A stretch of 64,000 bases of DNA from Hydrolagus colliei (Eukaryota), in contig CM068748.1 of assembly GCA_035084275.1 (NCBI GenBank), positions 7,564,001 to 7,628,000 on the forward strand, read 5' to 3'. The notes beneath the pieces are model-generated. The model did no database searches. It was given only the letters and a program-made list of their open reading frames with translations, and had not been told where the DNA came from. The first letter of the stretch is position 1, and each line of letters opens with the position of its first letter. Both the position numbers and the translations under genes were made by a program. Positions 17,968-63,201 of the stretch are shown piece by piece.

Positions 17968-18128
17968 ATCAGTCATTTCATTACATGACAGTTTGTGGGA
18001 CACGGCTGCCACATTTCACCCACAAAATACAGTCAATTCACTTTTCTGCATATTTTGTGAAGCACTTTGAGACATCTAGAAGATATGGAAAGCCCTATAT
18101 CAACTGCAAGTATTATTATTATTATTAT
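17968..18128 (+). mobile_element. Deu-core SINE, truncated (another 3' piece at about 17650-17765)
   Basis: Core and (TTA)n tail. Confidence 0.75.
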
Positions 18129-19127
18129 GTTTATTACAATATAACTTTGAATTAGAAATCACTGTTGCTATTATTACCGTGTAATGCCTATCATACCAGA
18201 ATCCACCAACGTAAATGTAAGTGTATAATATTAGTTATTTAATTATTAAATATCTTATTTAGGGATCACTTTCAGAATAATGTTACAATTGCTATCATTT
18301 TAAACATGTTCTCTATGATTTTTCTATTCTGTCTTTTCAAATTTTTCACCTTCATCTTGATTAGAATTTTAAAATCATATTGAATGTAATTAGGTTGATA
18401 AACACACTCCACTAAACATCTGTGGTAAGAAAATAAGGTTAACCTACATTTCTCTTGGCCACCAATTTATAATATATAAATCTACCATTTGATGTTTTCT
18501 TTGCAATATTTGAGTAACTTCTAATAAAAAATGTGGAGTGAATAATCCTTTGGGAGAAATTCCTCAAAATGATACCATGAGATACAATATATATAATATA
18601 ATAACCATGAGGTATGCAGCTATTGCATTGTGTAGTTACATGAAAGATTGCTTCTCCGCATGGCACCTCTTCAAGATTGTCTGATCTGTATTGCTTGTAA
18701 TACAATCCATCACATCCACATCTTGCAGTAAAAATAAATTACATTTTATATATTCACTTCAAATTTGTAATGTATCTTGTGGTGTACATCTACAAATAAC
18801 CCTGGGTTCAAATATCTATTTGGTTAAAAAAAATTGAAGATAACTGATCAGAATGTAATCAAAATAGTATCTGGTTTTGAAAGAAAATGTAACAAGCTAA
18901 TAGCCATTCTAATTTCTTCTAATTGTGTACATTACCTTACCCTACCCATTTAAGGTATGCTTACATTCCGCTTCCAACTTCATTCAACAGATTTGGAGTG
19001 TTGCTATTGAAGGGTAAGCAATACACATCTCCAAAAACATGTTAGAGAAGAACTTTAACAGGTACAGCAGTTTATTGTAAGGTCACCTGGGCTAAATTTA
19101 TTTGCTAAAATGTATCTGTCTCATCGT

Positions 19128-19208
19128 AGCGCTTTGGGATATCCTCCCGACGTGAAAGGCGCTCTATAAATGTAATTTTGTTGTTATTGTTGTTGTTGTT
19201 GTTGTTGT
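19128..19208 (+). mobile_element. short L2 3' tail with (GTT)n microsatellite
   Basis: GCGCTTTGGGATATCCTCCCGACGTGAAAGGCGCTCTATAAATGTAATTT(TGT)n; similar tails at about 15105, 39705, 50882 and 54248. Confidence 0.75.
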
Positions 19209-21999
19209 AGATTAGCAATGTAACAGCAAAAAAAAAATGTCTGGTTGTTTTCCTCCTTTACAACTTGTTGGAACAAATTATATTCAAATGTGTTTGTTTT
19301 TACACAACCGGAACTATTTGCGAGTGCTTTACAGAAATTGTTCTTGAATTGGTAGAAATTTACATAGAAAATGACAAAGCTAGAATAAGTAGAAACACGT
19401 TTTGATTTTGATGTGGGAATGATTATATAATATGATGCTGTTTAATCCCCTGATTTATTTTATTTTGTGTGGCTCATTGCTCTATTCACATTGCAGAAGT
19501 TACATGCTAATAGTTTATGGCCATAACAGTTTTCTCTTTGTTCATTAAAATATGTATATGTAATGCATCAATCTGAATTTAAAATGTAAAGCTCCAAATT
19601 CACATATTATTGTTTAATATCATGACAAAGTATATGAGAAGAAATATTATAATCCATCGATTCAAAATTCTAATATGTGCTTTTCAAGTAGCATAATAGA
19701 ACAAAATGTTTCCAGTATTGCATTGTCCAAATTAAAGATGAAATCTGACTTTGTATTTAGCACTGGGGTACTACATGTACTCTTAAGCAGTTTTTCTTTA
19801 TGTCTCACTTGGATTTCTCAGACTATTTTCCAGGCCTAAAACAGAACATTTGTGGGTGTAACAAGAAATATTGTTAAATATTTATTCAACTAACTGTGTT
19901 ATATTTTTGCTTCAGTACCTTCGATACCTTCGATACTTTTAACACTTCAGTTGTTACCTCTGGACAGCAATGAGGAATAATGTGGGAGAACATAATATCT
20001 CACTAGGATGGTGTGTGAGAAATAGCTTTTCACCTGCTTCTACAGGCGTCTAAAAAGGTTAATTTGGTAATGAATGCTGTCTGATCGAAAGAAATGTCAG
20101 AAAAACAATAGTGATTCAAATGTCCTTGTTAGTGCAAAAATAATTGTTTTAAAATCACAGCAAGTGGCTGGTAGTGACAAAAGCCCCAACTCCAGAATAG
20201 TTCTTATACTGGGTGTATTAGCTCAATGGGCTGAATGGCCTCCTATGTTGCAATGTTATGGCTCTATATTTGGAAATCAACTCATATAAATGGTATAATA
20301 TTGTTGCTATCTTACCCTGAGACATAAGTAACTGAAAGAAATCCTGCATAAAATCCTTGTCGATTAATTATCCCATATTTCCAGGGATTATCGCTTGCAA
20401 CTGCAAATTGTAAAGAAACAAGGTCACACAATTCTAACTTCTAACTAGGGAAGGCATCATGGGAAACAATATTGTACACATTGGTATTTTTGAGATCACA
20501 TGGAAAAACCACAACAATAACTTGCAATCATAAATAATAACAACCCTGACTGACCATAGGTCACCATTGCCTGTGCTGCTGTGAAAGCCACATAGAAGTA
20601 GACTTCTTCACTAAACAGTAATCCTTCATCTTTGGACTAGGCAGTAATATGTTGACGTGCATTTAAGAGGTAACTGATGCACTAATCCAGAAAGATAACA
20701 GTCTTGCCTACATTCACAGATATCCGGATACAATATATAATTATACATCCCTACCATTGTTAGGTTCCTCACGGTGCTGAATGCTGTTGATTACAGTGAA
20801 TTGATAAGATCTTTCTTCTATATATTCTATGTAATCTTCTGATATAAGGCTAACATACTGACATGTACGAAGGCTGCGTAGATCTCAAATATATTGATTA
20901 GAGAATGATTGATGAACAGAACAGTAGCCATTTGTCAAAGAAGATCTCCGATTCAGTAAAGTGTCCCCTCTATGTTTTTGTGCCATTACTTTACAATCTT
21001 CTGATCAGTGCATCTGGAGCACCAGCTGCTCAATGTTTTCTGAGGGGTTAAGAGACTCATTTCCTGCTCAGTAAGGTACTCAGTCAGGCCCAAGCTCTGA
21101 TTGGATGGCTGAATGCCCCTCTCACTATGACACTCATTATTGCTGAAGCGCCATGCTCCTGTGGGTGTCAACAAACGTGTTAATCTGTGAATAATTGTGT
21201 ACTGTACCTAACCTTAAAAACCCAGCTTGAACCCAACCCATGTTGTCTAAAAATACTACTTTAATAAAACACAGGATAGAAACTACTACAGCATACATAG
21301 GCTGAAACAAAATTTATACAGGACAAATGAAATGGAAAACAAGAACATAATGACAAAAAGCAATTTATACCCTTGGTGAGCACTCAATGTTGTTCATTAT
21401 TACCTTAAAATAAATTAATTATAACCGTTAAAATAGAAATCTAACATTCTTGCTCATATTATTCCTTCCTTGAGCATATGATTTTTCTTGTCATTTCTTG
21501 CGTTATATACAAATATTTGTGTATTTTTCAGTTTCTCTCTCCCTTTAATTTATTTTGTGTTGCATATGCATTTTAAACTGTGTCTCATGTGCATTGTAAA
21601 ATCAAGTTTCAGTTTGGGTACAGACTTCAAACCAATAATCTTCTGATTTAAAATTGAACTCATAATTCAGCCCGACACTGCAGTGAGGCACTGAATTGTT
21701 GGATCCTTCGATAAGAGGTACTGTTCTATTAATTTAAATGGAGAATTAAAATCCTATGGCATTATTTTGAGATAGCGGGAGACAGAGAAAGATGTTAGTG
21801 TTCTTGTCACTGCTTTGGTGTGCTAACAGTTACAAATATCTGACTTTGGATTTTATATCATTTCACGCACCACTCTAGGGGATTTAGGCATTAAATCATT
21901 GATTTAGCCTTAAGGCTACTAATTTACGATTTAAGATGAGACAGTTCTCTGAAATGCTACCTGTTTCAAATGTTGACATTTTTGAAACTCTGCAACTCG

Positions 22000-22490
22000 T
22001 ATCCTCTCCTTCACCAGGCTCCATAACCAATCACACCAGGTTTCGTGACCATATTACATCCACCCTGACCCAGCTCCACTGGCTCCCTCCCCATCCCTCA
22101 GAGGATTGAGTTCAAAATTCTCGTCCTCACCTTCAAGGTCCTCCATGGCCTTGCTCCTACCTAACCTTTCCCGACCTGCTAACAACTTATTAACCTGTTC
22201 CCTTCCCCCGCTCAGCAGGCTCTGGCCTGCTCCATGTCCCCCCTTCAGCTTGCCGCACGATTGGGTCCTCAGCCTCTATGCCTCCACCCTTTGGAACTCC
22301 ATCCCACATTCCCTTTGCCTTGTTCGCTCCCTTGCCTATCTCAAAGCACACCTCAAAATGCTCCTTTTTGGCCACCCTCCTACACTCTCTGCCCTCCACC
22401 CTCCCTGATCCCACTGCCCTCTTCCACTCGGGTCCTAATCCCTGACCATTAAATGCCATGGGACGTGTAAGGCACTTTACAAACATAATT
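22000..22490 (+). mobile_element. L2 LINE ORF2 C-terminal fragment
   Basis: Encodes DHITSTLTQLHWLP..QRIEFKILVLTFK.LHGLAP..WNSIP..LKAHLK with frameshifts. Confidence 0.85.
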
Positions 22491-24026
22491 GTGAATTGTA
22501 TTGTTGCTGACAAAGTGATAGAACAGTTTATTATAGTTGCTAAGGCCTTATTAAAATGCGTCAAACAAGGCAAAGTCAAAATTTTGAGTTGGTCTCCAGT
22601 GTGCTGTAGTGCATTAGCTTTTGAGTGATGCAGCAGATTTGGCCACAGACAAGGGGGAGAGATTTATGAAGTGCTTTTGGCATCCATTATACGAGTTCAG
22701 TTCTGCACTCTCTTCAGGAGGGAGCATGAGTATATTTTGAGATGTTTGGGGCTACTATTCTAGTGTAGAAGATACACTGAAATAGATAGTTATTTTGAGA
22801 AAAAGTAGGAGCAAATGTAAGCTTACAAATATCATGACAACTGCAGAGCACAAGCACCAGGGAAGGCTAATGTGAATGTAGTTGGTTGAACACCTCTGCC
22901 AGTAATGTAGTGAATAAATGCTGATTTATTCTAATTAAGATCTTATGTACAATGAAGTGAAAGGCTTTTATTTGTTCAGTATATAAGGAAATGCACAGAT
23001 GTACTTTGAGTTTGGTTAATATTGTTTTTCTTAAATGGAAGATGTTCATGCAAAAGTAGGTGTCATATGATGGTACTTGTGGTTTTACAGGTTTGTTTGT
23101 CATGTCTAAGTTTTCAGTGTACACTGTTGTGCGAATGAAATGCTCATCTGTGGAACAAGTGGCACCTTTGGATGATCCATGATCCAAACGAAGAACTGCA
23201 GTAGGTACAGAAGAGCCACTATTTGCATCACAGACAAACAACCCCAATAGTTTCCGATATTGTAGTCATGGACTGTGTTCTTCTTGTGCTAACATCTAAT
23301 GTCTTTACTCATTGTGGCTTCCTGGCTCCTTACCTCCCTCCCACCCACCTTATTGTGCCTCACTTTCCCATCACCCTTACTCTTGTCCTTATATTTACTC
23401 CCACTCCTCTCAGTGCCATGTTTCCCTGCTGCATTTGCTATTTCTCTCTCTCTCTGCATCTTCTTCTTATTTGCTTTCCACTCCGACTTTGTGGGAGAAT
23501 TTTACCATAGATTTTACCACTGCTGATTTTATGAGGAATTTCATCAAACTTCTATCAGTTACAGTGGTATGTAAAATGTGATTCCAAATACAAATGTCAG
23601 TTAAGTCTACTTGAATATTTCCAGAGGGTTAGGTTCATAAATATCCACTGGGTATCCTTTTAAGTTTCCATAGGATTTTAAAGAGAAGAATCCAAATCAG
23701 ATGTGACATTGCTAAATTATTAATGTGGACTGTCAAAACAACAAAACCAGCCCACATCAACACTGTTTCATGAAGACCTGAAATAATGTAAAAGCAGACA
23801 ATGCCTAGAAACCTTCAGAAACAAATGGGGATGGTTATCCCCCATGGTAAAATGTGTGCATGATTTGTCACAGGAGGCACATGGGAATTTCAGCAATGCT
23901 TACATTTGGTTTGTTTGCAATCGCAATTTTCCAGCAAAGGATTCATTAGCTAACAAGGGTTACCAAGGGTAGTCATAGTGATACAGTAATATGAGGAATC
24001 CTTGCACAAACCACAATAATAAAAAA

Positions 24027-26809: not shown

Positions 26810-27105
26810 GGAGACCAACAGCTCAATGGGTAGAGCACTCGCCTTACAAGCAGGAAACCTGGGTTCAATTCCACGCAGGGTGAAACCTTAGGCGAAACCA
26901 CACGCCTAATAATAAACCCTCCCAAAAAAAATTAGATTGGTCATTTCAATCAACAACTATTTGTTGTGATTGCTGTGCGCAATTGTTGCCACGTTTTGCT
27001 CACATATATACAGTGAATTCGCTATACAGTACATTATGTGAAGCGCTTTGAGATGTCTGAAAGACGTGAAAAGCACCATATCAAATGCAGGGATTAATAT
27101 TATTA
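26810..27105 (+). mobile_element. full-length tRNA-head Deu-core SINE
   Basis: AGCTCAATGGGTAGAGCACTCGCCTTACAAGC..GGTTCAATTCC head, core and tail. Confidence 0.85.
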
Positions 27106-41063: not shown

Positions 41064-41608
41064 CTGTCTATACTGATGATGCACAATGTCATTATCGAGG
41101 CGGTGCAACACATCACGTCCATGGCGATGAAGACATTGCAAAAGCCTTGTCCGAAGATCCACTGTCCGCCGATCAGGTCGGTGACGATCACGAAGGGCAT
41201 GACGGCCAGAGCCACAGACAGGTCCGCCAGCGCCAGGGACACGATCAGGTAGTTGGACGGCTGCCGCAGCTTCTTGACGAAACACACCGAGATCACCACC
41301 AGGCAGTTCCCGCAGATCGTCAGCAGCGTGATCAGAGTCAGCACGGCTCCGATGCCCACCTTCTCGGCGTTGCCGTAGGGCAGGATTTGCTCCCCGCAGT
41401 TCGTGGCGTTGAGCCGCCGGGTGGGAGGCGGTGGGGAAGTTAGTCGGGAGCCGGGCGCGGGGTGCGGGAAGGTCCTGGCGAGCGGGGGAGGCTCCAAGGA
41501 GCCGGAGACCATCATCATCATCACCATCGCGGTGACAGGGGCGCCGGGCTCCGGGAGCCTGGCTTCTGTCAGGCGGAGGTCAACCACAGAACTGCCGTTA
41601 AGGTCCAT
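41064..41608 (-). CDS. HTR7: 5-hydroxytryptamine receptor 7, coding exon 1 (N-terminus to TM3)
   Basis: Translation MDLNGSS...CGEQILPYGNAEKVGIGAVLTLITLLTICGNCLVVISVCFVKKLRQPSNYLIVSLALADLSV...DVMCCTASIMTLCIISIDR is near-identical to 5-HT7 TM1-3. ATG at 41608 (GTTATGG, good Kozak) aligns with the mammalian MMDVNSS start. Ends at a phase-2 donor AG|GTGAGC inside the DRY Arg codon, the conserved HTR7 intron position. Lies in a CpG island. Confidence 0.97.
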
Positions 41609-42004
41609 AACCGTGGCGTGCGTGTCCTCCCCCCGGCGCCCGGCATTGGGTTCCAAGTGACTCGTGAGATGCCGGGCAATGAGCACAGACAGCCACCCAC
41701 CCACAGGGTGTGGAGTTCAGGCGGTCAATACCCACCCCCCCAACCCCCCCCTCAGTTCGCGTCTCTCTCTCTCTCTCTGAGTCTCTTACTTATTCTGCCC
41801 CAACAGTAACCCCCCCCCCACCACCCCCTCTCTCCCCCTCCTCCCAAATCAGCCTTGGGTTTGATTAAAAGTCTAATCTTTGCAGAAAACAAAGCGTGTG
41901 GCTGAGAGCCGACAGGACAGATGTAAGTGTAGTCTCTCACCCACACAATGGAAACGGAGGAAGGAGAACCCGCTTTCTTCAGCACTTCTGCCTTAACCTT
42001 TAGT

Positions 42005-43360
42005 CACCCCCTCAACCCACCCACCCCTCACCCCCTCACCCCTCAACCCACCCACCCCTCACCCCCTCACCCCTCACCCCCTCACCACACCCACCCCTCA
42101 CCCCCTCACCCCCTCACCCCACCCACCCCTCACCCCCTCACCCCCTCACCCCACCCACCCCTCACCCCTCACCCCCTCAACCCACCCACCCCTCACCCCC
42201 TCACCCCACCCACCCCTCACCCCCTCACCCCCTCAACCCACCCACCCCTCACCCCTCAGCCCCTCAACCCACCCACCCCTCACCCCACCCACCCCTCACC
42301 CCCTCACCCCCTCACCCCACCCACCCGTCACACCCTCACCCCACCCACCCTTCATCCCCTCACCCCACCCACCCCTCACCCCCTCACCCCACCCACCCCT
42401 CACCCCCTCACCCCCTCACCCCACCCACCCCTCATCCCCTCACCCCACCCACCCCTCACCCCCTCACCCCACCCACCCCTCACCCCCTCACCCCCTCACC
42501 CCACCCACCCTTCACCCCCTCACCCCCTCACCCCACCCACCCATCACCCCCTCACCCCACCCACCCCTCACCCCCTCACCCCACCCACCCCTCACCCCCT
42601 CACCCCCTCACCCCACCCACCCCTCACCCCTCACCCCCTCACCCCTCACCCCTCACCCCACCCACCCCTCACCCCCTCACCCCACCCACCCCTCACCCCC
42701 TCACCCCACCCACCCCTCACCCCCTCACCCCACCCACCCACCCCTCACCCTCTCACGCCCCTCACCCCCTCACCCCCTCACCCCACCCACCCCTCACCCC
42801 CTCACCCCACCCACCCCCTCACCCCACCCATCCCACCCACCCCTCACCCCCTCACCCCCTCACGCCACCCACCCACCCACCCCTCACCCCCTCACCCCCT
42901 CATCCCACCCACCCCTCACCCCTCAGCCCCTCACCCCCTCACCCCACCCACCCCACCCACCCCTCACCCCTCACCCCCTCAACCCACCCACCCCTCACCC
43001 CACCCACCCCTCACCCCCTCACCCCCTCACCCCACCCACCCCTCACACCCTCAGCCCACCCACCCCTCACCCTTCACCCCACCCACCCCTCACCCTCTCA
43101 CCCCCTCACCCCCCTCACCCCCCTCACCCCACCCCCTCACCCCCTCACCCCCTCACCCAACCCTCACCCCCTCACCCAACCCACCCCTCACCCCTCACCC
43201 CCTCACCCCACCCACCCCACCCACCCCTCACCCCCTCACCCCCTCATCCCACCCACCCCTCACCCCTCACCCCCTCACCCCACCCACCCCACCCACCCCT
43301 CACCCTCTCACCCCCTCATCCCACCCACCCCACCCACCCCTCACCCCACCCACCCCTCAC
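42005..43360. repeat. 1.36-kb compound C-rich/G-rich tandem repeat (CCCCTCA, CCCTCA, CCCCACCCA units)
   Basis: Directly visible. The minus strand reads (TGAGGGG/TGGGTGGGG)n, with dense G3-G5 runs and short loops. Confidence 0.97.
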
Positions 43361-43936
43361 CAGCGTGTCACTGTGGTGAGCAACTGAGCTCAAGACGAGA
43401 CACAATCGTTAACCACACGTCCGGCTTAAAGAACCGGAGTGACGCGCGGGGATGAATGAATCGCTATATCAGCCACTATCATCCCACAGCTGACACAGAG
43501 GGCAACACGCGTAACGTTGCAACGCGGTTGTCAACATTCAGAAGCCAATGTCCTGTACATCTCTCCCTCTTTCCATTATGTTTTTCTCTCCGCTTATTGC
43601 AAAATATGATTGTGGATTCCTTTTTTTAAAAAAAATTGGCTGAGCAATATTTAAGTGATGGATCATTACGTTTGATAATAATAATAGTGACAATCCTTGC
43701 ATTTGATGTACTTTTTAACGTTCAAAGCCCGTGTAAAGTGCTGCTGTACATCTCTTTTCCTTATCAATTGTTTGTTTCTCTTCCCCAGTACTTTAAAGCT
43801 GATCGTGTGATCAACGATGGGCATCTGGTCTGGAACTCAAACAACAGCTCAACGTCTCACCACAATGGCACACCCAGGGTGGAGCACTGTAGCTCAGCGA
43901 TCAGAGCACTCGACAACAAGTTTGATTTAAGGTCAA

Positions 43937-47300: not shown

Positions 47301-48954
47301 GAAAGGAAAGCAGGAAAATTGACTGTATATTTGTGGATATGAATAGATTAAAAGAAGAACTCTTTCATATGTGCATAGACAGCAGCATTATAGATGCTAT
47401 CTGCAATATCAACTCTTGGTTCACTCATTATTAAAGGCTTTAAAACAAATTACAAATTTACATTTATATACCTCATTTCACGTTGGAAGGGCAATCCAAA
47501 GTGTTTGACTGCAGTGGCTTGCCAAAAATGTTCATTTTGCATGTTTTTATACTGTTCAGCAAAAGCTACAGAACACTTGAACATCAGCAAGTTTTCTCTA
47601 TCAATTACATAGACAAGATGTAAGTAAAGTGCATTTTAGTACTCAAACCTTGAAGATGCAGAAAAACACAAATGCCATTTAGATTTTTTTTATGTCACTT
47701 AGATGCTTGTCCCATTGAAAATAAAAAGACAACGCAGGACTTCTGCTGAAATCGGGAAACTTGGCGTAATTGTAATTATATCAAATAATCAAATCTCAAA
47801 TAATCAAATAGCAGTATGTCTTGATAGATTAGTGCAGGAAATCACAATAAAGGATTATGTTCTTTGATTTGATTAGTTATCAGATAACTACCGGTACTAA
47901 CCACATATCACAGAAAATTGTCCTACCAAATGTCTGTAATATGTTACCAATTTGACACATCACCCTGTATTTATTAAGTGTATATCTATGTTTTGGGATA
48001 AGTTTTCATCAGAAGGAAGTACCTTTGTGAATACATTGTTCCAATTAATGGGCAGATTTTGTTGAATTTTACAATCATAATAATCCTTGCATTTTATATA
48101 CCACATTTCAATTAACAGGATGTCTCATAGCTCTTCACAGGATTTACTGTAAAATGTAGTGACTGCATTTTATATGTACCTGATTTGTGCACCATATTGC
48201 TCCATTTTGTTCCTATTTAGACCAAATTCTTGAAGCATGTAATGATTATTCATGTAGTCGATCAGTGAATCAAAATGCAATTGTTTGATGAACACAAAAA
48301 AATCCCCAAACCCATAGTTTTACAATGTATTTTTGCATGTGGAAGATCAAATCTGACATGACTTCCCTGTGGAAGAGGTGGAGAAGTGAGCCACCTAATG
48401 CTGTTATGCAGAAACTGCAGTTTTACAGCTGCCATGTATTTGCAGAACACGCAGCATTTTGAATGAAAATCTCCCCCAACACTGTATCAATGGAAACAGG
48501 AATAAAATCAAGCGCATAACGATTGCCAAATTAACCAATATTAAATTAAAAATATGATGGCATTTAAGGTAACCTTTAAATGTGCAGCAGCTGAGTCAGT
48601 GGAAGCAGTGGAAGGTCACCTCTGAGTCAGACACTTGTGGGTCCAAATCCCACAGGGGAATTGAAGTCTCATAGTCTAAGATAACCACAGCAACAACAAC
48701 TTGCATTTATATAGCACACCTCATGGATGGGAATGTCCCAGTGGGGGCAGGACAGTGGCGGAACATGATTCCGAGCCAAGGGGGCGTGGGAATGCGACCT
48801 TAGATACGGTCTAAGAGGAAGGAGCAACCTGTAGATGGAGTAGGAGGGGGCAAGGCAGAGGGATGGTGTGACACTCCAATCCAGTGCTGAGGGAGGTGTC
48901 ACATTATCTAAGTTGTCGTCCTATGGATGAGACGTTAAACCGAGGTCCCATCTT

Positions 48955-49255
48955 CCATCCGAGAGATCGGTCCACAATTCTTCAAGCACATTTTGGAAAG
49001 AAACAACCAAACAATAGCTATTGCAGCCTGAAATCCAGACACTTGCTCTCAAACCACTTGTGGTTTGAGAGCAAGTTATCCCAAGAACCTCAAATGGCTT
49101 AAAGTGGAGGCCACTTGGGGAGATGACATTGTTGTGCATGTGCCTAAGACTGTGAAACGGAAATTCTGCAAACTGGATCTTTTGATAAATTTTGCAACAG
49201 TGTTTTCTCCTCCTGCAGCAAAGGAGAAACAAGCTTCTGAGATGTGTCCAATGAG
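48955..49255 (+). pseudogene. C-factor/CsgA-like short-chain dehydrogenase/reductase pseudogene, first exon remnant (Rossmann fold)
   Basis: Frame from 48963 reads EIGPQFFKHILERNNQTIAIAA*NPD...YPKNLKWLKVEATWGDDI...VKRKFCKLDLLINFATVFSP, then after a frameshift SKGETSF*DVSNE|GTATT. This parallels the family pattern SRGLGLQFCRHIL..IATCRNPD..LRLDV..EEDI..FG.VDLIIN..MLHPSGKGETSLRDVS. Stops at 49029 and 49238; the 5' end is cut by a SINE. Confidence 0.8.
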
Positions 49256-49832
49256 GTATTAATGGTTTCTCTGTATCTGCCAAGTTTCTGTTGTGCAACT
49301 GTTACACAGCGTAATATTTTGAAATTGGCCTGCACAAAATGAGCAACGATCTCGTTTTTTTTCACAAATTGAATGATTCTGATAACATGTCACAAATGTG
49401 CCTCCAGTTTTCCTCTGTGCAAAATTAATAACCTGTTTTCAGTTCATTAGCAATATTTCCATGCCAAATGAATGTGAGATAACTGCTTCTGTAGATTATT
49501 CCAATAATGCTGCTGACTGGACTATCTTAACATATCTGCAGACCATCCACAACACAGACGATCCTCGTCCTTTCCAGCACCAGGAGCCTGTCACCCTTGA
49601 TCTCACTCAGTTCTACTGGCTAAAGCAGATTGATTCAACATTGTCATTGTAGCATTCAAATCCCTTTCTCATCCTGAAAACTGGAGGCACATTGTGACAT
49701 GTTATCAGAAGCATTCAATTTGTGAAAAAAAATGAGACCATTGCTCATTTTGTGCAGGCCAACCTCAAGGTATTATACTGCGTAACAGTTGTACAACAGA
49801 AACTTGGCAGATACTTGGCAACCATTAATACC
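49255..49832. repeat. long inverted repeat, arms about 158 bp (49255-49412 and 49676-49832)
   Basis: GGTATTAATGG...GTATCTGCCAAGTTTCTGTTGT...GATAACATGTCACAAATGTGCCTCCAGTTTTC recurs as a reverse complement with scattered mismatches. Confidence 0.92.
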
Positions 49833-50071
49833 CATCTCTATAAGCCTAAATCCCCGGCGGCACCCTCACTGCACTCAAGACAACAATGACCTGTTTCACT
49901 GCCTGTTACACCATCAGTTTGGCAAAATTTCAGCTACCCGGTTCCCATATTCTGGAACTTCATTACTTCCTTTTCCTTTCTGTCTCTACTGCTGCCAAGT
50001 TTTAATTTTCTGCTTTGTAATGTATGCCGCATGAATAGCATTGTCATAATAAATCCTGTTTTATTCTGTAG

Positions 50072-50330
50072 GTGGATGGTACATATAGCAAAGGTCCAAA
50101 ACTGTTCCAAATATAGCCAGTGAAAAACTTAGCATTGAACGAGGTAGAGAGAAGGCAAAGGTGGTGTGTGTTTCTCTGCATCCAGGAACTGTAGACACTG
50201 AACTTTCAAGGCCCGATCACAAACATGTAGCCAAAGATAAAATATTTACTCTCTTAAACTGAAGACGTTCGGATATTTACTCTCTTAAACTGAAGACGTT
50301 CAGAACTGTTTGTCAGTCACCATTGGCAAA
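50072..50330 (+). pseudogene. C-factor/CsgA-like SDR pseudogene, last exon remnant (catalytic region)
   Basis: Acceptor ttttattctgtAG|GT, then GWYI*QRSKTVPNIASEKLSIERGREKAKVVCVSLHPGTVDTELSRPDHKHVAKDKIFT..TEDVQNCL, versus family GGWYSYRMSKAALNMATxNLSIELGR..VVCVSLHPGTVNTDLSRPYH.NVPKDKLF. The YxxxK Tyr is now TAG (50086-50088). The 3' end is truncated by a SINE. Confidence 0.88.
50242..50301 (+). repeat. tandem duplication, period 31 (29-bp exact unit), frameshifting the SDR pseudo-exon
   Basis: ATATTTACTCTCTTAAACTGAAGACGTTC at 50242-50270 and 50273-50301. Confidence 0.95.
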
Positions 50331-50332
50331 TA

Positions 50333-50678
50333 GTAATAATTATTGTTGCATTTCATACAGAGCCTTAACACATCTTCAAGATGTTTCGAAAAGGTTCACA
50401 GAATATCCTGTAAAGTGAGTTGACTGCAAATTTTGTGGGCGAAAGGCAGCGCACAATTGTGCACAGCAGTGTCCCACAAACAGTCGTGGATTGAGTGACT
50501 AATTATTTTTTAAGGGATTATTATCCCCTGAAAAGTAATTTACCAATGGACTAACAATTGGGTTTCCACTTAAACACAAGCATGTGGAGTATGGCATACC
50601 CAATGTTGATCACTGCCTGGAAATCAAACACTGGTCATCTTGGTTATGAGGCAAGTGCTCTAACCACTGAGCTCCACT
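50333..50678 (-). mobile_element. full-length Deu-core SINE truncating the SDR pseudo-exon
   Basis: Minus-strand head GAGCTCAGTGGTTAGAGCACTTGCCTC, core and tail. Confidence 0.8.
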
Positions 50679-56058: not shown

Positions 56059-56224
56059 ATGGAGGAGCGGCGAGGCAGCCTCTGTAACGGCTTCCACCCG
56101 TCAGCCCCCGACACCGGCCCCCGTGCAGGGCCCGACCGTGACCATGAGCATGAACACGCCTCGCCCGCCAAGAAATGCCGCGTCAGGAGGAGGTTGGACT
56201 CGGCGGGCAGGAGGAACAGACCGC
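56059..56224 (+). CDS. PANK1: pantothenate kinase 1, alternative first exon 1-alpha
   Basis: MEERRGSLCNGFHP...HASPAKKCRVRRRLDSAGRRNRP matches the PANK1-alpha-specific motifs NGFHP and [22 protein letters not shown] that precede PFPWFG. Kozak GATATGG; phase-1 donor C|GTAAGT at 56225; inside a CpG island. Confidence 0.9.
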
Positions 56225-56639
56225 GTAAGTCAGGCTCTGTAAGAGCGACAGCCTCCACCTCCCCTTGTAGGCGGCAGCTTGACAACCCCCCACCCCCCCC
56301 CCCCCCACCATCCCGCCGGTCACTCTTTCCCGGGGCGCCGGTGGATGGAGCTACCGACATGAACACTGAAATTAAATGAATGGCTTCTTTTTTTATTTGC
56401 ACTCATCTATAGCTGCCGTGTTTCGTGTGGATGGCGCTGTGTGAGTGGGTGAGTGTATGTGTGTGTGTGTGTGTCGGGGGGGAGGAAACCTGCCGCAATA
56501 TTATGTTTAAAGATCTTGCAGTCGCATCAATTTTTTTTGATGCTACAATTGATGAGAAAAATGGCAGTCATCGCCCGACTGACTGAATAAATAACTAACT
56601 AACTCTTCGCCTAGTTTTACACCCGACGCTGGTTGTTGC

Positions 56640-61146: not shown

Positions 61147-61621
61147 CAGGTAAACCTCTATTTAGGATGGGGTTGCGTTCCTGAAAAATTGTATCTAGAT
61201 TGAAACGTCCTAAATCGAAACGCAATTTCCCATTCGGTCCCATTATATAACTAGAGATGCGTTCTTTTCACAAAATTTGCGGACCTTAAAACCACTAAAT
61301 AACACACAAAACCACACAAATTAACACACATAGGCAAGAAGGGGTACTTGGGGTAACTACGGTGTTGTACTTTACTACTGGCAAACTTTAATACAGTACA
61401 CTACTGGCAAATTTTAATACTGAAAGTGTGACAGTGGCAGTGGCACTTGCAGCTTCCCCACTCATCTTGATGTTGTGGAGTCCATAGAGTCTTTTAAACC
61501 TTTGAAACCACCCTCTGCTAGCACTGAAAGATGGTGCCGTTGAGCCTTCTCCTTCTTCATCATTTAACTTCCTCTTACCTCTTATTGAACAGGTATCTAT
61601 TGTTCTGATTGTGATCTTCAT
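61147..61621 (-). mobile_element. Tigger/pogo DNA transposon remnant with CENP-B-type HTH fragment
   Basis: TA|CAGGTAAACCTC terminus with GCGTTCC motif. Minus-strand peptide FSASRGWFQRFKRLYGLHNIKMSGEAASA is a typical Tigger transposase motif. Internally deleted. Confidence 0.85.
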
Positions 61622-63201
61622 GGCAATGGATCATCAGTTTCCCCAGGCCCTGTTTTGACTTCCACTTTTTTTTTGTGAGCATGGGGGGGTGGGATTGGAA
61701 GAACCATATTCAAATTCATTTTTATTACAAATTATTTCTGTTAGAAACAGATTTGGAATGTATGGTAGAAAAGCTATTTGGAAATAGTTTGGATCAAAGT
61801 TGACTTGATTAATGGTATGTGCTTGGCTACCACTGATATAGAATAAGTATACTTGATGGTAACTTTAGACGGGGCATCTGTGATTACCAAAAAAATGTTT
61901 TGATCTATAGGTAGGTCTTGCAGTAGTATAATAATTATTTTGTAAATACTGTATCATGAATCTTCTGTGCTTTACTTCACAGATGGTGACTTTTCTTAGT
62001 GAAATACTGTGCCTAGTTTGTACAGTGTATTAGTGTTTCCTTTTGACCATTTGCTCTGGTAGTGTAAAAAGCGCCACTGTATTCTTTCAGCATATTTACT
62101 CTAAAATAATTGCCTAAAATACTACCCTTTGAAAGGGTGTGTGTTTCAACTGAGCTTTCTGTGACTCAAATGTTCTCAGATACTTCAGGCAAATTTTTCA
62201 ACTGAGAGCTCCTGAACAGCAAGCGTTTCTGGAATTGTGTCAACATTTGCTGTGAGGGCAGGCTTTCAACTGGTGCTACTGAGAATGAGCCAATCAGGCA
62301 ATAAACAGGCCATATCATGCAGCTGGAACACTATTAGCCTCAAGTTGTGAGATTTAGGGGTGGGATAAGTCTTACACTTGCATTATTGCTATCAAGAATT
62401 AAAGTTGCAAAATGTAAAATACACTGCAGTAATCCTTTTGTATCACTCCAGGCAGTAGGAGCAATAATAGAATGTAGATACAAATTCATTTTAAGCAGCT
62501 TTCCATGTCTTAATTTGTTATGACTTGCTGACTAAAGTACCTGTAACTTGTGTGACTAAAGGAATCCAATCATAACATATATAAAGATGTTTACAATACT
62601 CCAAATGTTTCTAATGCAATTGTTTTATCTTCAAGGCAGTTACAAAAGAATGGATACTTATAGACAGACAGACTTGTAGTATCAACCTAATCTAGGCATT
62701 TTCAGTTCAATCCTGACAGTAACAGGTTAGCCTCTGTTTTTATAGATTTTGTATTCCATTCAGCGATCAGCTTGTGTTAGAGATTAAATTACTCGTCTCT
62801 TTAAAACAGATTCGTTTATTCAGGTATACTCATTGAGCTGACACTAAAGCATATAAAATGACTACAATGCATGCAAAAGCCAACCACTCCATTACTTCTG
62901 TTTCCTTCCAATTCTTCTTTTACTTTGTTCACCCTTTTCGCCTATTCCCTCTTATCCTCCCTTCTGCCTCGGGTCTCAATATCGCATTACGCCCTAGTCT
63001 TCACTTTTGGAGTTTACCTGTCATCTACCTCTTGTGATGACGCTCCATTAATACACTAGGTTTCTCATAATGCAATCTCATACACCAATATACTACCCGG
63101 CACGCATTCTTCAGGTTAAAAGGGAATAGTCCTTTCTCTTCCTTTCTTCCTCTCAGTCGGTCTCGGGGAAAAGTAGGGGTGTAGATCTCTTTGGGGATCT
63201 G

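Follow-up and report, generated by a model that had tools for sequence, protein, structure and literature searches.

The 64-kb stretch of vertebrate-like DNA analysed here (39% GC; hereafter the window) contains two exon-like pieces that raise the question of whether they are the remains of a once working gene and, if so, how and when that gene was lost. The initial annotation had read them as a pseudogene of a C-factor-like SDR with its pieces in the correct order and strand, and had proposed tblastn with C-factor-like proteins against the interval. Exon 1 and exon 3 of the zgc:65997/PRK09009 ('C-factor') SDR were both recovered, in order and on the + strand, by tblastn, profile HMM and frameshift-aware profile alignment (Table 1). 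With the paddlefish C-factor P0003 as query, tblastn aligned exon 1 at 48945-49226 (32% identity, E 1e-7) and exon 3 at 50068-50250 (66% identity, E 2e-21), both significant. The profile HMM detected exon 1 with E 2e-11, homology resuming at 48954. The frameshift-aware alignment scored 110 for exon 1 and 192 for exon 3, where shuffled sequence reached at most 27 and 33, respectively (n=10 shuffles each), so that both pieces stand well clear of chance. Exon 3 as query gave 12 matches among 31 candidates, with paddlefish, frog, lizard and amphioxus 'C-factor/C-signal-like' proteins at 60-66% identity; tblastn with eight of these proteins matched both pieces and nothing else notable in the 64 kb.

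The family to which the pieces belong could be narrowed further. The exon 3 translation (X at stops; P0002) matched NCBIfam PRK09009 with E 7e-15, a value that lies under the whole-protein cut-off since the piece is a fragment, and the next family followed at 0.013. Sniffer matched the pseudogene with E 9e-4 only, which assigns it to the PRK09009/zgc:65997 clade instead of the sniffer-like SDRs. In a tree, the exon-3 piece fell among the vertebrate orthologues with weak support, on a branch of 1.22 compared with 0.03-0.47 for the other vertebrate tips. The zgc:65997 proteins of paddlefish (P0003), zebrafish (NP_956847, P0036 in our set) and coelacanth (H3AHF4) share 59-66% identity with exon 3 of the remnant and 26-42% with its exon 1, and their exon boundaries are those of the remnant. 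Homology in exon 3 is clear up to 50250, and beyond the tandem repeat the resemblance is by eye only. Unlike the zgc:65997 proteins, the remnant cannot be translated: it carries stops and a frameshift, and exon 2, the start and the C-terminus are missing.

Table 1. Features of the SDR locus and its neighbours (positions are those of the window).
Feature	Position	Strand	Remarks
HTR7 second coding exon	34892-35701	-	human 5-HT7 receptor 7xtc, E 6e-142
HTR7 first coding exon	41063-41608 (start approximate)	-	Pfam 7tm_1 E 3e-27
High-copy SINE-like repeat end, abutting exon 1	48900-48953		start codon and Gly9 gone
Exon 1 remnant	48954-49255	+	residues about 10-108 of P0003
Perfect 17-bp palindrome in exon 1	49041-49076		organism A (window's organism) only
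Inverted duplication left arm, start of intron 1	49255-49412	+	
Intron-1 GT donor	49256-49257	+	phase 0, conserved position, after codon 108
Inverted duplication right arm	49676-49832	-	
Exon 3 remnant	50066-50328 (start approximate)	+	residue 168 onwards
31-bp tandem duplication interrupting exon 3	50242-50303	+	
SINE-like repeat truncating exon 3	50329-50510	- (relative to most other copies)	
Candidate PANK1-alpha first exon	56059-56224	+	basic cluster at end, GT donor at 56225

The inactivating lesions were judged against 115 aligned orthologues. Gly9, Gly13, Gly15 and Arg36 are invariant in 115/115 of these, and Tyr175 and Lys179 (YxxxK) in all 114 with a residue at that column. That the Tyr codon of YxxxK had been turned to TAG was well read: the TAG at 50086-88 aligns to the invariant catalytic Tyr175, and Lys179 is retained. 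The further stops, frameshift and SINE truncation at both ends were likewise located. The Arg36 codon has become a TGA (49029-31), and exon 1 contains a second TGA (49238-40) as well as a frameshift of net +2 somewhere in 49191-49219 (29 nt vs 27 expected); repeats cut off the gene at 48953 and 50329. The GxxxGxG cofactor motif is disrupted, with Gly9 lost under the repeat, Gly13 replaced by Glu and Gly15 kept. With YxxxK broken and the frame closed, the locus lacks what a working PRK09009/zgc:65997 SDR requires. Neither the last about 22 codons (the C-terminal end) nor the N-terminal end was found in the window by HMM or frameshift-aware alignment. The 3' SINE-like repeat has 14 other copies in the window (70-86% identity, mean 76%).

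The neighbourhood of the locus was inspected next to its content. HTR7 had been named as a neighbour, and its identity is borne out by the match to human 5-HT7; its intron measures 5.4 kb and SINEs are dense in the window. An approximately 1.5 kb C-rich tandem repeat with long proline-rich open frames lies just upstream of HTR7 (41933-43455), and a marginal tRNA match at gathering score at 26820-26875 is likely a SINE head. On the other side, the exon at 56059-56224, by its motifs a candidate first exon of PANK1-alpha, had no match in the PDB, a protein search or the Atlas, and PANK1 exon 2 motifs are absent from the window. HTR7 (41608) and the PANK1-like gene (56059) are arranged head to head. 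In human, KIF20B lies between HTR7 and PANK1, so that an inversion would have occurred in one lineage. A Pfam search of 59 frames (57 of the 159 candidate non-repeat frames plus two others) revealed no additional gene in the interval from HTR7 to the PANK1-like exon. A Tc5/pogo-type transposase DNA-binding domain at 61391-61630 (- strand) scored below cut-off (E 4e-4), a weak sign that intron 1 of the PANK1-like gene houses a degraded DNA transposon. A basic NLS has been described just before the PANK1 catalytic domain (PMC3496714), and PANK1 has been placed beside IFIT loci across vertebrates (PMC3688568). The zebrafish orthologue NP_956847 is assigned to chromosome 17, which also carries an IFIT cluster (PMC8073704), a placement consistent with the PANK1 neighbourhood at chromosome level only. 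The turtle orthologue P0293 is named 'AN1-type zinc finger protein 4' (ZFAND4), a naming error that could stem from an adjacent gene and may hint at another gene neighbourhood in turtles.

Where the intact gene survives bears on whether the remnant is the only copy. A search with P0003 scored 8000 candidates, of which 526 passed; the best 120 were considered, and 113 of these are named. The named proteins come from ray-finned fishes, coelacanth, amphibians, a turtle, lizards, a brittle star, an acorn worm, a water flea and a snail, and the best 120 of 526 extend as far as Daphnia (63% identity). Among the seven remaining, three are in clusters with named teleosts; the tree groups six with teleosts and gives the seventh no clear place. 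The initial annotation had these SDRs in bacteria and fishes, which is right as far as it goes; the range is wider and takes in amphibians, turtles, lizards, coelacanth, invertebrates, plants and protists. No shark, ray, chimaera, bird, crocodilian or mammal is found among the 113 named of the best 120 of 526 matches, and no chondrichthyan among the 12 matches to the window's exon 3. These names suggest that the gene is absent across cartilaginous fishes. Two proteins of a cichlid cluster bear the name 'Mustela', which was taken as a database mislabel and not as a mammalian orthologue. The arowana and reedfish zgc:65997 models (P0178 and P0154) are degenerate or patched and may be further independent losses. 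A metagenome scan returned two weak 24-residue matches, both to a non-homologous tail and judged to be chance.

The remnant is unlikely to be a segmental or tandem duplicate that died while an intact paralogue lives on in another part of the genome. One C. milii entry named 'c-factor' (XP_007900418), which would fit such a paralogue, stands in a published table that lists no human c-factor and is itself incomplete, as it is without a gar orthologue (PMC8073704). Against a duplicate, no chondrichthyan is named in either set of matches, and depth over both exons is flat and single-copy at likeness of at least 80%, an argument that is weak for an old duplicate because a paralogue below 80% DNA identity would escape it. 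A unitary loss, in which the remnant is what became of the gene itself, is the reading followed below.

The stretch 48900-50360 was compared with contigs of four runs (X5, X9, X10 and X6) among the 12 containing it, a set that includes a gut metagenome (X11) and in which no RNA run is listed, a fact that carries no message about expression. X5 is from organism A in another sample and study, X9 is from organism B and X10 from organism C. The repeat that abuts exon 1 has a summed depth of about 18,000-23,000 in X5 and X9, and loose contig ends lie at 48948-48953. The start of intron 1 holds an inverted repeat, overlooked in the initial annotation, whose left arm begins at the exon-1 donor. Its arms are 89% identical over 158 bp (16 mismatched pairs) and it spans 578 bp. 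X9, X10 and X6 each contain at least parts of it, and its right arm is covered by contigs of all four runs. An old MITE that inserted at the exon-1 donor and helped to kill the gene would account for 158-bp arms within a 578-bp span and for a left arm that begins exactly at the exon end. We regard such an insertion as quite improbable: no other copy was found in the window or, at 80% likeness, in the four runs, no target-site duplication is visible by eye, and the arms, which differ by 10%, seem more recent than the decay of the coding sequence. X5 depth is flat at 27.6 across the repeat (80% likeness), indicating a single copy, and it is this single-copy state that makes the repeat a local inverted duplication of the start of intron 1 instead of a multi-copy MITE. 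A possible continuation of the repeat into exon 1 did not reach significance on its own (score 27 vs shuffle maximum 38).

Exon 1 contains an inverted structure of its own. The palindrome at 49041-49076 is perfect in organism A only; in X9 its left arm has three bases fewer and five substitutions, which leave the frame like that of the orthologues, and X10 and X6 carry three of these X9 differences, among those listed. A later template-switch change in organism A is the probable origin of the perfect palindrome. As the relatives keep the older sequence, it offers a clean natural case of quasi-palindrome template switching.

The exon structure determines whether the gene decayed in place or was copied from RNA. 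The GT at 49256 had been called a phase 0 donor, and it coincides with the intron-1 boundary after residue 108 in isoforms of turtle (P0132), amphioxus (P0152) and snailfish (P0159). Because this GT stands exactly at the conserved exon-1 boundary, the locus is non-processed, with intron 1 kept at its conserved site. The acceptor had been put at the AG ending at 50071 and in phase 1. The phase was correct, as isoform and fragment ends (P0133, P0134, clam P0201 and P0250) place the intron-2 junction within codon 168, and exon 3 therefore starts near 50066; the AG itself (50070-71) is exonic, two codons inside exon 3, and the ancestral AG lay 6 nt upstream at about 50064-65 and is mutated. A processed retrocopy that was later interrupted by an insertion is highly improbable. 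Such an origin draws on the absence of exon 2, which leaves only one junction pair to judge, but the homology stops precisely where exon 1 ends in the orthologues, with a GT there, and picks up again, beyond a T-rich tract, where their exon 3 begins.

The middle exon had been considered lost, and our searches agree. Exon 2 (residues 109-168) was not found in the window by HMM, and in six intron sub-regions its scores were 16-25 (p 0.07-0.91, 300 nulls each); simulated half-exon remnants scored >35 in 95% of runs, and one-third remnants were often missed. A match picked by eye on the minus strand at 49841-49890 was rejected (p 0.24). Exon 2 may have been deleted by the event that produced the inverted duplication, be it fold-back or template switch, a link that is positional only.

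Contigs of the relatives provided information regarding the reality of the lesions, and confirmation of the stops in independent sequence data, as the initial annotation had advised, was obtained. X5 covers the stretch in one contig with eight substitutions and one gap, and no stop is repaired: seven listed substitutions lie outside the stops and the eighth, a C>T, cannot alter TGA or TAG. X9, X10 and X6 are about 97% alike to the window; the comparison of lesions rests on the listed differences, 13 substitution and three indel rows lying outside these. All three have a G>A at 49117 that creates an extra TGA in exon 1. In X9, where all 10 differences of the contig concerned are listed, the TGA at 49029 persists alongside a +1 frameshift. 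For X9 and X6, the tallies of changes contain no unlisted G>C or G>T able to restore Tyr175; the X10 contig ends short of exon 3. Across 49624-50360, X6 has 21 bp fewer, the greater part of the difference falling within the 31-bp tandem duplication. Among the differences listed, X9 has 8/274 bp changed in exon 1 (palindrome arm left out) and 22/751 bp in the intron, both 0.029, and in exon 3 1/153 bp, with up to three more unlisted. Exon 1 and the intron have thus diverged equally, in line with neutral decay. The lesions are real and fixed, not assembly errors, and the four-run comparison refutes both an assembly artefact, since the independent run X5 reproduces the locus, and a still-functional gene, since the relatives have further stops and exon 2 and both ends are absent.

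The extent of decay in exon 3 was used to place the loss in time. Of 47 columns conserved at at least 90%, 16 are changed in the remnant (16/45 without rounding), compared with a median of one and a maximum of six in the intact orthologues (113 of 115 rows, two having been dropped for gaps). Neutral simulation reproduces this decay at d of about 0.2 substitutions per site (compatible range about 0.12-0.3), a value that leans high because changes before the loss inflate d with a teleost-heavy consensus. This is roughly 14 times the per-lineage divergence between organisms A and B, and because exon-3 decay far exceeds the 0.029 between relatives, the loss is old. One run of 11 consecutive conserved columns at about 50160-50205 is intact (permutation p 0.056), slightly uneven for neutral decay and probably due to chance.

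These distances suggest an order of events. First inactivation would have come about 0.2 substitutions per site ago, followed by insertion of the 3' SINE, about 0.12-0.14 from its family, and then by the inverted duplication of the start of intron 1 at about 0.055 per arm. Next would come the separation of organism A from organism B, at about 0.015 per lineage, and last the changes confined to organism A, such as the palindrome. As the inverted duplication is younger than d of about 0.2, the loss of exon 2, if tied to it, would postdate the death of the gene. The initial reading as a non-processed C-factor-like SDR pseudogene is upheld, with intron 1 retained, stops that are real in an independent run and a dead gene common to relatives. 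Very probably, then, the locus is a genuine pseudogene, old and non-processed and in all likelihood unitary, the in-place remnant of a three-exon vertebrate zgc:65997 orthologue that is decaying neutrally.

How far the loss extends beyond this lineage can be considered on the same evidence. The dense SINEs and compact genes of the window fit a holocephalan (chimaera), the probable host. Chimaera assemblies are about 1 Gb with more SINEs than shark; chimaera families are put 187 My apart, and sharks at about 400 My from chimaeras (PMC12952989). For shark, a mutation rate of 7e-10 per generation has been given (PMC10587355). On balance we lean towards absence in all cartilaginous fishes through separate losses. 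It is doubtful that a single loss before the shark-chimaera split about 400 million years ago, still readable through the slow chondrichthyan clock, accounts for the pattern together with convergent losses in birds and mammals; if it did, the remnant would be among the oldest recognisable vertebrate pseudogenes. The CC-licensed literature searched contained neither a description of this loss nor a paper on zgc:65997. The locus records what is apparently a previously undescribed loss of an enzyme whose conservation extends from bacteria and plants to bony fishes, amphibians and reptiles, and its decay forms a datable series in a lineage that evolves slowly. Should the gene also be missing from sharks, birds and mammals, its repeated loss could give a hint of the substrate.

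The intact zgc:65997 protein is a classical SDR in which the GxxxGxG glycines are invariant, strand 2 is followed by a basic residue and YxxxK is present. A basic residue at the Arg36-type position is an established SDR rule for NADP(H) use, and the invariant Arg36 suggests the same cofactor here. Going by general SDR rules, the protein probably acts in carbonyl or lipid oxidoreduction, as an NADP(H)-dependent carbonyl reductase or a lipid-glycerol oxidoreductase. The closest solved structures to the intact orthologue are 3wxb (E 1.5e-28), deposited as a 279-residue uncharacterised protein and presumably chicken carbonyl reductase, and Drosophila Sniffer (1sny, E 1e-27); an Atlas search with P0003 returned generic SDR clusters only. 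CsgA and Sniffer have been described to oxidise cardiolipin (PMC4579348). Myxococcus CsgA, Drosophila Sniffer and chicken 3wxb form a separate, more distant sniffer-like SDR subfamily; any likeness in substrate to zgc:65997 would be analogy only, and the name 'C-factor' on zgc:65997 proteins is an automatic annotation. Among vertebrates, GULO and UOX in primates are unitary pseudogenes. The remnant differs from these in being probably much older and in a slowly evolving fish lineage; like GULO and UOX, it shows a metabolic gene, probably present once, that decayed where it stood, keeping an intron and bearing lesions common to relatives.
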